Assembly: GCA_905209725.1 (NCBI GenBank)
Contig: CAJLTZ010000001.1
Coordinates: 53 to 64,052 of the forward strand
Direction: 5' to 3'
Length of the DNA stretch: 64,000 nt
Origin: an uncultured Muribaculaceae bacterium
GTDB taxonomy: Bacteria > Bacteroidota > Bacteroidia > Bacteroidales > Muribaculaceae
The notes under the pieces were generated by a model. The model searched no databases, was not told the DNA's origin, and was given only the letters and a program-made list of their open reading frames with translations. Shown here piece by piece: positions 41,378 through 43,931 of this stretch; within the stretch, counting starts at the first letter, position 1; each line of letters begins with the position of its first letter. Position numbers and translations under genes: made by a program.

Positions 41378-41446
41378 CTAAAAAATTGGCCGGAACATCC
41401 AATAACTGCACCGGCCTTATTATAAAAATTAGATAATGTATTATTT
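41378..41446. repeat. left copy of a ~65 bp direct repeat (ctaaaaaattggccggaacatccaataactgcaccggccttattataaaaattagataatgtattattt), containing a GGCCGG/CCGGCC hairpin
   Basis: About 85-90% identical to 43826-43889. On the minus strand the hairpin plus the following TTTTTT resembles a terminator downstream of the C10 islet. Confidence 0.6.
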
Positions 41447-41509
41447 CTGCTCTATGCTCTCTTTATCCAATTTTCGATTTGCCGAAAGATGAAGGTTATG
41501 AGGTTACTT

Positions 41510-41643
41510 AAACCCCATCCCATGCAGGGGCGACCGATTTTTGCGCATCTCAGCCAAGTCTCATCGGTCACGATGCCCGCATCGCTCCCTCTTCAACTTG
41601 CTGAGCTGCATCAAAAATCGGTCGCCCCTGCATGGGATGGGGT
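41510..41643. repeat. 134 bp palindromic element: perfect ~33 bp inverted terminal arms (aaaccccatcccatgcaggggcgaccgatttttg / caaaaatcggtcgcccctgcatgggatggggt) around a 65 bp partially palindromic core
   Basis: Read directly from the sequence. Sits immediately 3' of the 269 aa ORF (stop at 41674). MITE-like, giant terminator or structured RNA. Confidence 0.7.
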
Positions 41644-41673
41644 CTTAATTTTATGTCCAATCAGTCACTTGGA

Positions 41674-42483
41674 TCACTTCAATGTCTTGACCTTGTTGTG
41701 AATAAGAATTCCGGTGTCGCTTGATGCCGTTCTACGGCCTGATAAGGTGTATGTCGCATCATCGGGTTGTGGCGTTTCCTCCAGAATCCCGGCAACGGCA
41801 TTCAATTGTTTGGCATCGTACTCGTATACAATAGTTCCATTTGACGTGACTTTTATGAGTCTTGAACTTGCGTCGCCGGCAACCCTGTATCGGCAATTGT
41901 CTAACGGACCATTGGCCGAACCGATTCCCTTGATCCATACTGCATCAAATTTCCCTTCTCCCTGACTGAAGGAATCCGAGAGGTCGCGCACAAAGAGGGC
42001 CTTGAAGGTTGTGTTGCCATAGTTGAGAGTTTCTTCTCTCACGCAGGATAAGGGATACGTGGACGGTTGGTAAAAATGGAGTCTCCTTAAAGTGAGCATA
42101 TCTCCGCAATAAGGAGAGCAATTCTCTCCGGGAGTGAGATCGAAGTCGTAAAGGAGAAAAGGCTTGGATCCAAAACCGTAATTGAATGTATAGATTTTAT
42201 TGCTGTCGGCATAGATGAAGGAACATAAGGTTTTCTCCTCGCCGATCCTTTCATTTTGAGAGAGGTCGTAATCCTGTTGCCAGAGATTCATGTATGTAAG
42301 GCCGTTGATTGGGGTAGTACCTTCAATCCAGAGTTCTGAAACTGAAGTTTGGCTTTGACCTTTACTGTCGATATAATCCGTGCGTACAATCCAACTTGTG
42401 CCTTCCGCAAAGTAGTTTTCTTGCGAGAAAGCGTTGAAACCGCACATCATGCATAACGTAAAAATTAATTCTTTGGAGTTCAT
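41674..42483 (-). CDS. hypothetical secreted protein, co-oriented 30 bp downstream of the C10 peptidase gene
   Basis: Signal peptide MNSKELIFTLCMMCGFNAFSQ, several Cys residues, no recognised domain, low GC like the neighbouring peptidase gene. Confidence 0.55.
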   Translation of the reverse strand: MNSKELIFTLCMMCGFNAFSQENYFAEGTSWIVRTDYIDSKGQSQTSVSELWIEGTTPINGLTYMNLWQQDYDLSQNERIGEEKTLCSFIYADSNKIYTFNYGFGSKPFLLYDFDLTPGENCSPYCGDMLTLRRLHFYQPSTYPLSCVREETLNYGNTTFKALFVRDLSDSFSQGEGKFDAVWIKGIGSANGPLDNCRYRVAGDASSRLIKVTSNGTIVYEYDAKQLNAVAGILEETPQPDDATYTLSGRRTASSDTGILIHNKVKTLK

Positions 42484-42513
42484 TGTGAGATATGTTTTAT
42501 ATTTTTTAGAGTA

Positions 42514-43686
42514 TTATTTTACAGCGATATAATCAAAATCATGATAATTTATCATACCTGGAATTTTGAATACGTCACCTGTATAGTAGCCATTCCCGCT
42601 ACCATCCCAGCCCCAGTCACAATGGAGATATATACATGTTCTTACTTCTTTTTGTAGAAACATATCGTAATTAGAATAATATGCGCATCCGTCAACAACC
42701 CATCCATGTCCGTCTTGGTAGCCTGTTTTATCTGCATTACATCCTGTCATGTAAATTAGACATGAATCGAGTAAGAAATCAGAAATTTTTTTTGCGTCAT
42801 AATCATACATTACTGGATTTCCTGATGATGAAGTAGTCTTTATATTGCAATTGGTGGCTGAAAATAAATTAAGAGGTGCTGAGATAGAACACCATGTTGT
42901 GAATTTTTCATCATCGAAATAAACACCCATGGCAATACCGATGTCGCATATAAATCGTGCTAATTTGTCAGTTGCTTCAGCATAAGACATTAAAGAATGA
43001 TTTCCTCCTATTCCATTATTAATAGCATCAAAATCATAGAATCGATTATCATATACTAAAGTGTGTTTTATATGCGATATGATTGACGCTGTTGCGAGTG
43101 GAATGCAACCAGCAGGATAGCCTGGAGCCCTTTCTTCTACATATTTATTATATGGTGCCCATTGCTTTAAGACGGTTGTGAGTTTTGGAGCCACTTGAAC
43201 AGGTGGAATTTTCTCTTTGAAGTCCAGTGGATATGATCTGGTACTAGGCATATTGCAATAATAATCCATGTATGGTTCAATCAACTGGATAAAATTGGAG
43301 ATAATCATGTCATTACGCATGTCAAAAGAACCTGTGTCTGAATATGCTAACAAGGGGTTAACTCTATTGTCGCTTGCAATTATGGCAAAACCGTTATTGT
43401 TAAAGTTGATAATATAAACTAGTGTGTCGCCTAATTCATTTTTTATTTCGCCGTTTCTTGTTGATAAATCTCGCAGAATATAGTCAATATTATAATTATT
43501 GGTTCGCGTTGTACTATTGCATTTGAGTATGTTCTGTGCAATAGTTATTGCCTCGGTTTTAGATATATGTGATGCAGCAACGATATGCGAATCAGTTTTG
43601 TTATCCGATGGTGTGGTAATCATATCGTCGGAGCAACTTGTAATGCCACACAGGCATGTCAGTAGGATTAGTGTTTTAGTTTTCAT
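42514..43686 (-). CDS. peptidase C10 (streptopain/SpeB-like) family cysteine protease lipoprotein
   Basis: Lipoprotein signal MKTKTLILLTCLCGITSC. Catalytic Cys context PGYPAGCIPLATASIISHIKH resembles the SpeB Cys192 region (GCVATA...H). Catalytic His context QDGHGWVVDGC resembles SpeB GGHAFVIDG. The N-terminal ~120 aa match a C10 propeptide. GC about 35-40%, against about 57% in the flanks. Confidence 0.75.
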   Translation of the reverse strand: MKTKTLILLTCLCGITSCSDDMITTPSDNKTDSHIVAASHISKTEAITIAQNILKCNSTTRTNNYNIDYILRDLSTRNGEIKNELGDTLVYIINFNNNGFAIIASDNRVNPLLAYSDTGSFDMRNDMIISNFIQLIEPYMDYYCNMPSTRSYPLDFKEKIPPVQVAPKLTTVLKQWAPYNKYVEERAPGYPAGCIPLATASIISHIKHTLVYDNRFYDFDAINNGIGGNHSLMSYAEATDKLARFICDIGIAMGVYFDDEKFTTWCSISAPLNLFSATNCNIKTTSSSGNPVMYDYDAKKISDFLLDSCLIYMTGCNADKTGYQDGHGWVVDGCAYYSNYDMFLQKEVRTCIYLHCDWGWDGSGNGYYTGDVFKIPGMINYHDFDYIAVK

Positions 43687-43767
43687 GTTTTTCTAAAAGT
43701 TAGATGTTAATTATGTAGTTGTTTAAAACAGACTGGGTTAATAACAATGTTAAAGGATTAGTCAATG

Positions 43768-43775
43768 CAAATGTA
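43768..43775 (-). promoter_or_regulatory. -7 box TACATTTG, candidate promoter for the C10 peptidase operon
   Basis: Plus-strand caaatgta is TACATTTG on the minus strand, about 80 nt upstream of the peptidase ATG. Confidence 0.35.
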
Positions 43776-43825
43776 ATACATTAATTTTATATTATCAATT
43801 TTTTTGTTAAAATTGATAAATTTGT

Positions 43826-43889
43826 CTAAAAATTTGGCCGAAACCTCCAATAACTGTACAGTCCTTATAATTAGATAATGTATTATTTA
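43826..43889. repeat. right copy of the ~65 bp direct repeat (ctaaaaatttggccgaaacctccaataactgtacagtccttataattagataatgtattattta); hairpin degraded
   Basis: Aligns with 41378-41446. Immediately followed by a perfect 2x20 bp tandem repeat. Confidence 0.6.
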
Positions 43890-43891
43890 GG

Positions 43892-43931
43892 CCTCGTTGA
43901 ATCTTTTTAATCCTCGTTGAATCTTTTTAAT
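43892..43931. repeat. perfect tandem duplication, 2 x cctcgttgaatctttttaat
   Basis: Read directly from the sequence. Sits between the right direct repeat and the MATE stop codon. Confidence 0.7.

Follow-up and report, generated by a model that had tools for sequence, protein, structure and literature searches.

The 64-kb stretch of DNA analysed here (the window) comes from a human-gut Muribaculaceae bacterium, whose MATE protein is only 77-82% identical to those of the closest species representatives. Between purE and the MATE efflux transporter gene it carries an AT-rich segment of about 2.4 kb with two co-directional genes, which is enclosed by a sharply bounded direct repeat of 67/73 nt and is called the cassette in the following. 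The first gene encodes a C10 (streptopain, or SpeB-like) cysteine protease of 390 amino acids (aa), and the second a protein of 269 aa, the partner, which is probably co-transcribed with it. We favour, with somewhat better than even confidence, the view that this unit is a genomic islet, namely an accessory operon acquired horizontally and inserted downstream of the MATE gene with duplication of local host regulatory DNA.

Organization and base composition of the locus

Read along the minus strand, the locus consists of the MATE gene, a 2 x 20-nt tandem duplication, the 67-nt copy of the repeat, a leader, the 390-aa and the 269-aa open reading frame (ORF), a palindrome, the 73-nt copy of the repeat and purE, with a spacer of about 300 nt between the last repeat copy and purE (Table 1). 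Both ORFs are on the minus strand and only 30 nt apart. All features that a first-pass annotation of this DNA had claimed for the islet are present, displaced by 4 nt at most. The same cassette structure appears in at least six independent assemblies and is therefore no assembly artefact.

The guanine plus cytosine (GC) content is 26% in the leader, 35.8% in the C10 gene and 45.1% in the partner gene, compared with 54-60% in the flanks, and the GC content at third codon positions (GC3) is 29% in the C10 gene and 50% in the partner gene, compared with 69-72% in the flanking genes. The AT-richness pointed out in the first-pass annotation is thus real for the segment as a whole (26-45% GC) and extends to GC3, but the partner gene is less AT-rich than had been implied. 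On the minus strand of the leader a candidate promoter can be read by eye, with TTG at 43796-43798, a 20-nt spacer and TACATTTG at 43768-43775; TTG/TAnnTTTG is the promoter consensus of Bacteroides. A sigma-70 promoter scan and a terminator scan of the cassette region gave no excess over the shuffle expectation, an Rfam search of the region gave no match, and no terminator-like site was found between the two cassette genes. Given the 30-nt gap, the two genes are probably transcribed together.

Table 1 Features of the cassette and its flanks, in the order of transcription (positions in the window; a dot stands for no strand)
Feature	Position	Strand	Basis
MATE efflux transporter gene, host flank, upstream of the cassette in the sense of transcription	43958..45412	-	Pfam MatE E 1.6e-43; GC 54%, GC3 69%
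Perfect 2 x 20-nt tandem duplication, MATE 3' flank, strain-variable	43892..43931	.	read from sequence
Direct repeat, MATE-proximal copy, 67 nt, hairpin degenerate	43822..43888	-	sequence alignment, RNA fold
Insertion sequence (IS) target site in many other strains (AGACAAATT on the - strand), inner repeat edge	43819..43827	.	contig ends L123, L125-L128, L114
Leader of the cassette, 26% GC, candidate Bacteroidetes-type promoter	43687..43821	-	read from sequence
Predicted C10 (streptopain-family) cysteine protease zymogen, 390 aa	42514..43686	-	Pfam, alignment with SpeB
Secreted partner, 269 aa	41674..42483	-	profile search, AF2 model
Palindromic element, 132 nt, between partner gene and repeat	41512..41643	.	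repeat scan, RNA fold
Direct repeat, purE-proximal copy, 73 nt, terminator-like	41374..41446	-	sequence alignment, RNA fold
purE, host flank, downstream of the cassette, first gene of the pur operon	40596..41069	-	Pfam AIRC E 2.7e-62

The C10 protease gene

The product of the first gene matches Peptidase_C10 (PF01640) with 55.9 bits against a cut-off of 26, over residues 174-368 and profile positions 2-194 of 194, and Inhibitor_I69 (PF13734) with 60.1 bits against a cut-off of 25, over residues 38-141, which correspond to the pro-domain. When a profile of its homologues was aligned with the streptopain zymogen (6ukd), the match covered the full length, with an E value of 7.8e-29. In this alignment the I69-like region lies over the pro-region of SpeB, three motifs are in register (paGCva/ATGCVA, gHaWviDG/GGHAFVIDG and HcdWGWgg/HVNWGWGG), and Cys194 and His327 line up with the catalytic dyad of SpeB. 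Both residues are invariant in 15 homologues, as are Cys18, Gln175, Trp358 and Trp360. The protein begins with MKTKTLILLTCLCGITSC, which by eye contains a lipobox with Cys18 as the lipidation site. Taken together, the Pfam matches, the invariant residues and the register with SpeB identify the gene product as a true C10 lipoprotein zymogen that carries an I69-type pro-domain and whose activity is predicted; the identification made in the first-pass annotation was therefore correct.

Distant C10 homologues in other Bacteroidales (L011-L016, at about positions 3900-7400 of each; L numbers denote loci and contigs used for comparison) occupy a conserved slot between a HU-HIG DNA-binding gene and leuS. 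Their C10 genes have 31-35% GC in hosts of 55-60% GC, and the genes that come after them encode unrelated secreted proteins. Genes that follow other C10 genes were also tried as remote relatives of the partner and were rejected, with hhalign probabilities below 6%.

The partner protein

The partner consists of a signal peptide, a beta-rich open-barrel domain of about 200 aa and a C-terminal tail of about 50 aa. It had been regarded as unrecognised, and searches of Pfam, NCBIfam, PADLOC and PHROGs indeed gave no match, the results with the last two indicating that it is not a known defence or phage module. A word-indexed search likewise returned near-identical proteins only. An exhaustive HMMER search, in contrast, placed the protein in a family of at least 289 representative clusters (50% identity) at E<=1e-3. 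Most members of this family are 240-290 aa long, whereas others comprise two domains or, in a few cases, up to five repeats (about 1,600 aa).

For the fold we used an AlphaFold2 (AF2) model based on an alignment, which has a predicted local distance difference test score (pLDDT) of 86, and discarded a single-sequence model with a pLDDT of 42. The closest folds are PDB 4fvs and, after it, the LolA superfamily, so the body of the partner is modelled as an open beta-barrel with a weak resemblance to BDI_3050, the protein of entry 4fvs, and to members of the LolA superfamily. The tail has the family consensus Y-L-G-R...G-I-Y-I-x-N-G-K-K over the last 50 or so profile positions, and profile positions ~204-257 align with the C-terminal ends of two secreted enzymes of known structure (PDB 4kca and 7jvi). 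The same tail matches the C-termini of a 1,584-aa secreted protein adjoining the sister cassette described below and of a neighbour protein at the locus L017. The domain PF18962 is carried by 1 of 50 partner-family members and by 6 of 22 indexed relatives; relatives are annotated with PF18962/TIGR04183, and the NCBI name of one is type A sorting protein of the type IX secretion system (T9SS). The last 50 or so residues of the partner resemble a T9SS sorting domain. Judged from these tails, the partner is likely to be secreted via T9SS and would be exported to the cell surface, where it may act as a binding or tethering accessory that often, though not in every case, travels with a C10 protease.

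Linkage of the partner family with C10 genes

There are three independent contexts in which a C10 gene has a partner-family gene downstream. The first is the window. The second is a sister cassette (L003 type) between the genes for a HIT protein and an iron-containing alcohol dehydrogenase (Fe-ADH), in which the protease is 55% and the partner 38% identical (E 1e-60) to those of the window. The third is the distant locus L018, where the C10 gene is followed by a 236-aa gene and then by the partner-family gene. A metagenome scan with an alignment of the two partner sequences found only the two known cassettes. Window and sister cassette co-occur in three assemblies (ERZ919809, ERZ27272568 and OGNF01), and the contig with the sister cassette also carries the dispersed palindrome of the window; they are therefore probably paralogous loci of one organism. 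The GC3 split of the window cassette, 50% against 29%, has no counterpart in the sister cassette (L003 10001-12045), where both genes have about 30-33% GC3.

Partner-family members also occur at L017 and L020 without a protease nearby, and the C10 genes of L011-L016 are followed by genes for unrelated proteins. The recurrent pairing, the lone members and the unpaired C10 genes together indicate that the link between protease and partner is recurrent but facultative, as would be expected of an accessory surface module more than of an inhibitor that is obligatory.

The first-pass annotation had suggested that the partner may be a novel inhibitor or chaperone of the protease. On this account it would be a dedicated cognate partner comparable to Spi, the staphostatins, Bfi or Bti, with a new and larger fold. 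Papain-like proteases of Bacteroides are typically co-transcribed with exported inhibitors (PMC2873492, PMC3462683), and the short distance and common direction of the two genes, the retention of the pairing in the paralogous cassette and, at a distance, in L018, and the beta-barrel-type fold of the partner body would all agree with such a role. But the partner matches neither staphostatins nor cystatins nor I69 by sequence or fold, shows no link to Spi and is about twice the size of known inhibitors, while the protease has an I69 pro-domain of its own and other C10 genes precede unrelated proteins. In addition, the family includes members without a nearby protease and members with 2-5-fold repeats, and the T9SS-type sorting tail of related members implies surface display instead of periplasmic protection. 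A dedicated inhibitor is therefore not supported, and we regard an inhibitor or chaperone function of this kind as improbable.

As a separate observation, L131 (1-7200) contains a weak relative of the partner family, similar in the tail only (P0174, whose cluster comprises 2,933 sequences), close to a gene for a papain-family (C1) peptidase; the P0174 relative and the C1 peptidase gene each have a 241-aa unannotated gene after them.

Direct repeats around the cassettes

The two copies of the window repeat share 60 of the 67 positions that were aligned and differ by a single 6-nt indel; their similarity ends abruptly on both sides with nothing significant beyond. Core patterns of the repeat occur twice in the window, compared with 0 expected from 100 shuffles, so the flanking repeats of about 65 bp described in the first-pass annotation are real and non-random. 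The purE-proximal copy has an intact GGCCGG...CCGGCC stem followed by a T-run (-15.9 kcal/mol), and the MATE-proximal copy has a weak RNA fold (-6.4 kcal/mol, z +1.0). Further copies of the element, for which the first-pass annotation had proposed a search, were not found: exactly two copies exist in the 1.86 Mb of fetched DNA, which includes the sister locus, and they look like duplicated local intergenic DNA. Neither the repeat nor the palindrome could be upheld as a common element flanking the cassettes, the former because it has two copies only and the latter because it is dispersed and unrelated to the repeat. An integron attC reading of the hairpin repeats was also rejected, since by eye their ends are unlike RYYYAAC/GTTRRRY and the window repeat is barely palindromic.

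Bracketing repeats recur at other cassette loci. The sister cassette (35-38% GC in flanks of 54-55%) is enclosed by a 50-nt repeat of 96-100% identity, both copies of which form a strong terminator hairpin (-20 to -22 kcal/mol, z -3.7 to -4.5). The first copy begins 14 nt past the HIT stop codon, and the second is directly followed by a TAnnTTTG box ahead of the Fe-ADH gene. At L017 a lone partner-family gene (40.7% GC in flanks of 54-59%) is enclosed by a repeat of 185-218 nt with 94-98% identity, which starts just behind the stop codon of the upstream gene and comprises a perfect intrinsic terminator and a TTTG-21-TAAATTTG promoter. A weaker case is L013/L014, where the C10 gene and an adjacent 372-aa gene share a 144+83-nt promoter, 5' untranslated region and signal-peptide start. 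The repeats of the window, sister and L017 loci have no sequence in common. A self-BLAST of all fetched DNA for pairs of at least 40 nt and at least 80% identity, 0.3-6 kb apart, returned 27 repeat pairs, and those that enclose a GC dip of at least 6 points all lie in four cassette loci (window type, sister type, L017 and L013/L014). About 1.5 Mb of MATE and rpsL control loci contained no repeat pair that encloses a GC dip.

Downstream of the lone partner gene, L017 also encodes at 6118-8046 an acidic protein of 642 aa with about 19 tandem 60-nt (20-aa) repeats, whose C-terminal tail matches the tail of the partner family.

Transposases make fixed short duplications, and site-specific integrases need a conserved core and a recombinase gene. 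Neither a transposase nor terminal inverted repeats at the cassette edges were found, and the duplications vary from 50 to 218 nt. Because they are locus-specific, variable in length and coincident with the regulatory DNA of the upstream host gene, they argue against both enzymes. The same evidence bears on the idea that the repeats are attL/attR remnants of an integrative element whose integrase was lost or acts in trans, as in cis-mobilizable elements (CIMEs). Repeats of 50-70 nt around a segment of foreign composition are the classic signature of an integrase island, and the locus is a hot spot for IS and palindromic-element insertions and for strain recombination. Nevertheless, only two genes and no integrase or integrase remnant lie between the repeats, those of the three loci (50, 67/73 and 185-218 nt) are unrelated and have no common core, and in every case the repeat falls on what is ordinary terminator or promoter DNA of the host gene upstream. 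We therefore give an att origin little credence.

Another explanation is that the repeats belong to the cassettes themselves, either as terminator/promoter modules resembling PeSLs (promoter early stem-loops) or as the terminal redundancy of a circular or rolling-circle form, so that genes would be shuffled by recombination with no duplication of host DNA. The L017 repeat is exactly a terminator-plus-promoter module, the L013/L014 genes share their promoter and 5' end, variable repeat length fits terminal redundancy, and T4-type phages use such modules and form mini-circles (PMC2839356). PeSLs, however, are a multi-copy consensus family, whereas the modules found here are locus-specific and present in two copies in all DNA examined. 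Moreover, copy 1 begins 0-70 nt past the stop codon of the upstream host gene, as the terminator of that gene would, and the GC content and context of the repeats resemble ordinary host intergenic DNA. We consider cassette-borne repeats unlikely.

Strain variation at the cassette edges

The 2 x 20-nt tandem duplication next to the MATE gene, which the first-pass annotation had described as perfect, is indeed so, though strain-variable: there are two copies in the window and in L128, and one in L123-L127 (five assemblies). In many conspecific strains an IS has inserted where the MATE-proximal repeat has its inner edge, with a 9-bp target duplication (AGACAAATT) and terminal inverted repeats (...TAGTGTCCACTAAAAAAT.../...ATTTTTTAGTGGACAGTA...), as seen in the tails of L123 (7580-7765) and L125-L128 and in the head of L114 (1-140). 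Its transposase begins with MHKDPFVFSQLVQFLDRNHFNYLV, with an N-terminus that matches DUF4372 (E 1.8e-4), and in carrier strains the IS splits the MATE gene from the cassette.

The palindrome has perfect arms of 32 nt and a 68-nt, partly self-pairing centre (-106.5 kcal/mol, z -15). It is dispersed, with a 97% identical copy at L003 18391-18493, where five contigs (L004-L008) end, a fragment at L026 4103-4138 and a further form at L112 ~7240-7560. The native variant (L112, L115, L116, L119 and L121) has imperfect arms and a second hairpin unit of about 185 nt extra; the window has a 'perfected' variant, in which the 32-nt left arm is matched exactly, as its reverse complement, by the right side. 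Both variants retain the outer ends ACCCCATCCCA...TGGGATGGGGT. The palindrome is probably a later insertion, and it could be an element like a miniature inverted-repeat transposable element or a repetitive extragenic palindrome. Contig breaks at the two cassette edges had raised the possibility of a presence/absence polymorphism, which was rejected, as they are explained by the IS on the MATE side and by the dispersed palindrome on the purE side.

Between L112 (3473-8474) and the window (40596-45412), 57 codons of the MATE gene differ, 40 synonymously and 17 non-synonymously, compared with 5 codons of the protease gene and none of the partner gene and purE. This difference in divergence indicates a recombination breakpoint at the MATE/cassette junction. 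Strain polymorphisms within the cassette are too few for the ratio of non-synonymous to synonymous rates (dN/dS).

Elsewhere in the window, a second low-GC patch (40% GC) covers positions 1-2000 and includes a 452-aa ORF on the minus strand (257-1615).

Origin of the cassette

According to the reading that we favour, the islet, which would serve a surface or secreted C10 protease and a surface-exported partner, would have been inserted immediately downstream of the MATE 3' flank, and about 70 nt of MATE-side intergenic DNA with a terminator-like hairpin would have been duplicated at the far end of the insert, so that MATE, the cassette and the purE operon would each retain insulating regulatory DNA. 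The occurrence of the same layout with unrelated repeats of 50 nt and 185-218 nt at two other loci suggests that the duplication was made from local target DNA, possibly by recombination- or replication-based insertion. Candidate routes are template switching at a hairpin and a Campbell-type single crossover, the latter by a circular cassette with its own copy of the intergenic module. The proposal in the first-pass annotation of a horizontally acquired cassette or a repeat-mediated insertion has thus gained from the composition and from the comparable repeats at related cassettes, but no empty site was found.

The latter is one of several points that weigh against acquisition with local duplication. 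Exact-protein look-ups of S12, PurE and MATE were used to find contigs of the same species, and every contig long enough carries the cassette; an insert-free allele was not among them. In 80 MATE loci of related Muribaculaceae species (L022-L101), purE, purL and rpsL never adjoin the MATE gene, whose orthologue is flanked there by homologues of the window ORFs 12810-14180 and 2143-3480, in a setting of genes that have homologues at 2-24 kb of the window (2143-24689). The genes upstream of rpsL are highly variable among relatives. The MATE gene was relocated, or the region rearranged, in this lineage, and since synteny is broken at the MATE/purE junction, a cross-species comparison of empty sites is uninformative. 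With no empty site and broken synteny, the case for acquisition is one of composition and architecture. A single recent transfer also leaves the gap in GC content between the markedly less AT-rich partner gene and the protease gene unexplained; the GC3 split could reflect a mosaic origin or unequal residence times of the two halves. The hairpin of the window repeat is weak and not significant compared with shuffles, the C10 loci L011, L015 and L018 have no bracketing repeat, and the repeats could belong to the cassettes instead of the host. As for the partner, the window protein and isolated tails are below the Pfam and NCBIfam thresholds for the T9SS tail (PF18962, TIGR04183), and its interaction with the protease is a putative one.

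An alternative is a long-resident, lineage-specific operon that is AT-rich by gene family, for example because of regulation or silencing, with repeats that arose from an unrelated local duplication. Every strain seen carries the cassette, the identity of the repeat copies is down to about 90%, the GC3 of the partner gene is intermediate, and the C10 homologues are similarly AT-rich in several different GC-rich hosts. On the other hand, a GC3 of 29% against 70% should ameliorate in a long-resident gene, the two paralogous cassettes, although only 55%/38% identical, are both AT-rich at two unrelated sites, probably in one organism, and a GC dip goes together with bracketing repeats at four independent loci but at no control locus. 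Long residence is therefore unlikely in our view, and insertion of a foreign operon with duplication of local DNA remains the reading that we prefer.

C10 (SpeB-like) proteases are candidate host-interaction or virulence factors of gut Bacteroidales, and the Muribaculaceae are abundant in the gut and poorly characterised. A defined and apparently mobile protease module is now known in this family of bacteria. The partner family, with its at least 289 clusters and no match in Pfam, NCBIfam, PHROG or PADLOC, repeatedly accompanies C10 proteases and is a concrete target for biochemistry. Foreign genes lie inside duplicated local terminator/promoter DNA of variable length at three clear loci and one weaker locus. 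We speculate, as a long shot, that gut Bacteroidales may possess a recombinase-independent way of inserting AT-rich cassettes of secreted-protein genes behind host genes, in which a terminator (sometimes promoter) module of 50-220 nt is duplicated, so that the cassette and the genes on its two sides would keep their insulation and correct expression; cassettes might later loop out as mini-circles and re-insert by homologous recombination, and the partner family might be a new class of T9SS surface accessories that dock or regulate lipoprotein C10 proteases. If such a general insertion route is true, it would explain how compact Bacteroidales genomes gain accessory genes without disturbing neighbouring operons, and it would provide a simple sequence signature for recent acquisitions; if not, the cassette is an ordinary small genomic islet.

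Comparison with known systems

The partner model resembles PDB 4fvs, the putative lipoprotein BDI_3050 of Parabacteroides distasonis, and barrels of the LolA superfamily and of ependymin with TM-scores of only 0.30-0.35 and about 11-12% identity. There is no sequence-level relationship between the partner and 4fvs or the LolA superfamily.

The cassette shares with integrase islands and CIMEs a segment of foreign composition, direct repeats of tens of nucleotides and a position beside the 3' end of a host gene. It differs from them in that it has neither a recombinase nor a conserved core, the repeat length varies four-fold across loci and the insert comprises only one or two genes. The closest described analogues of the bracketing repeats are the PeSL cassettes of T4-type phages, in which modules of a terminator stem-loop (plus promoter) surround accessory ORFs (Arbiol et al. 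2010, PMC2839356), and for which recombination between copies has been proposed to move genes via mini-circles (PMC2839356). Of the PeSL unit of terminator and promoter, both parts are present in L017, the terminator only in L003, and a weak hairpin only in the window. Within a single phage genome, PeSLs form a consensus family of many copies, whereas the repeats described here are locus-unique pairs in bacterial chromosomes.

Compared with speB-spi of Streptococcus pyogenes (MEROPS C10/I69), the protease aligns over its full length, with the Cys/His dyad and WGWGG in register, and a second gene lies downstream in both cases. Their identity is only about 20-30%, however; the window protease is predicted to be lipidated, and the I69 domain is in its own pro-domain and not in the downstream gene. 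The Bfp/Btp C10 proteases with Bfi/Bti (Thornton et al. 2010, 2012) are similar in that they are SpeB-like lipoprotein zymogens of gut Bacteroidales with an exported co-directional neighbour close behind, and in that some Bacteroides copies are associated with mobile DNA. Researchers have reported that some Bacteroides C10 genes are on mobile elements and have co-transcribed neighbour genes (PMC2873492, PMC3462683). Unlike Bfi/Bti, which are staphostatin-like (lipocalin-type), the neighbour in the window has 269 aa and is a member of a distinct, so far undescribed family whose tail is T9SS-like, and unlike the Bacteroides C10 loci, the unit is a repeat-bracketed islet of 2.4 kb outside conjugative transposons and prophages. 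C10 protease islets in Bacteroidales were thus already known; the partner family and the insertion signature are what differs here, and the signature is potentially interesting.

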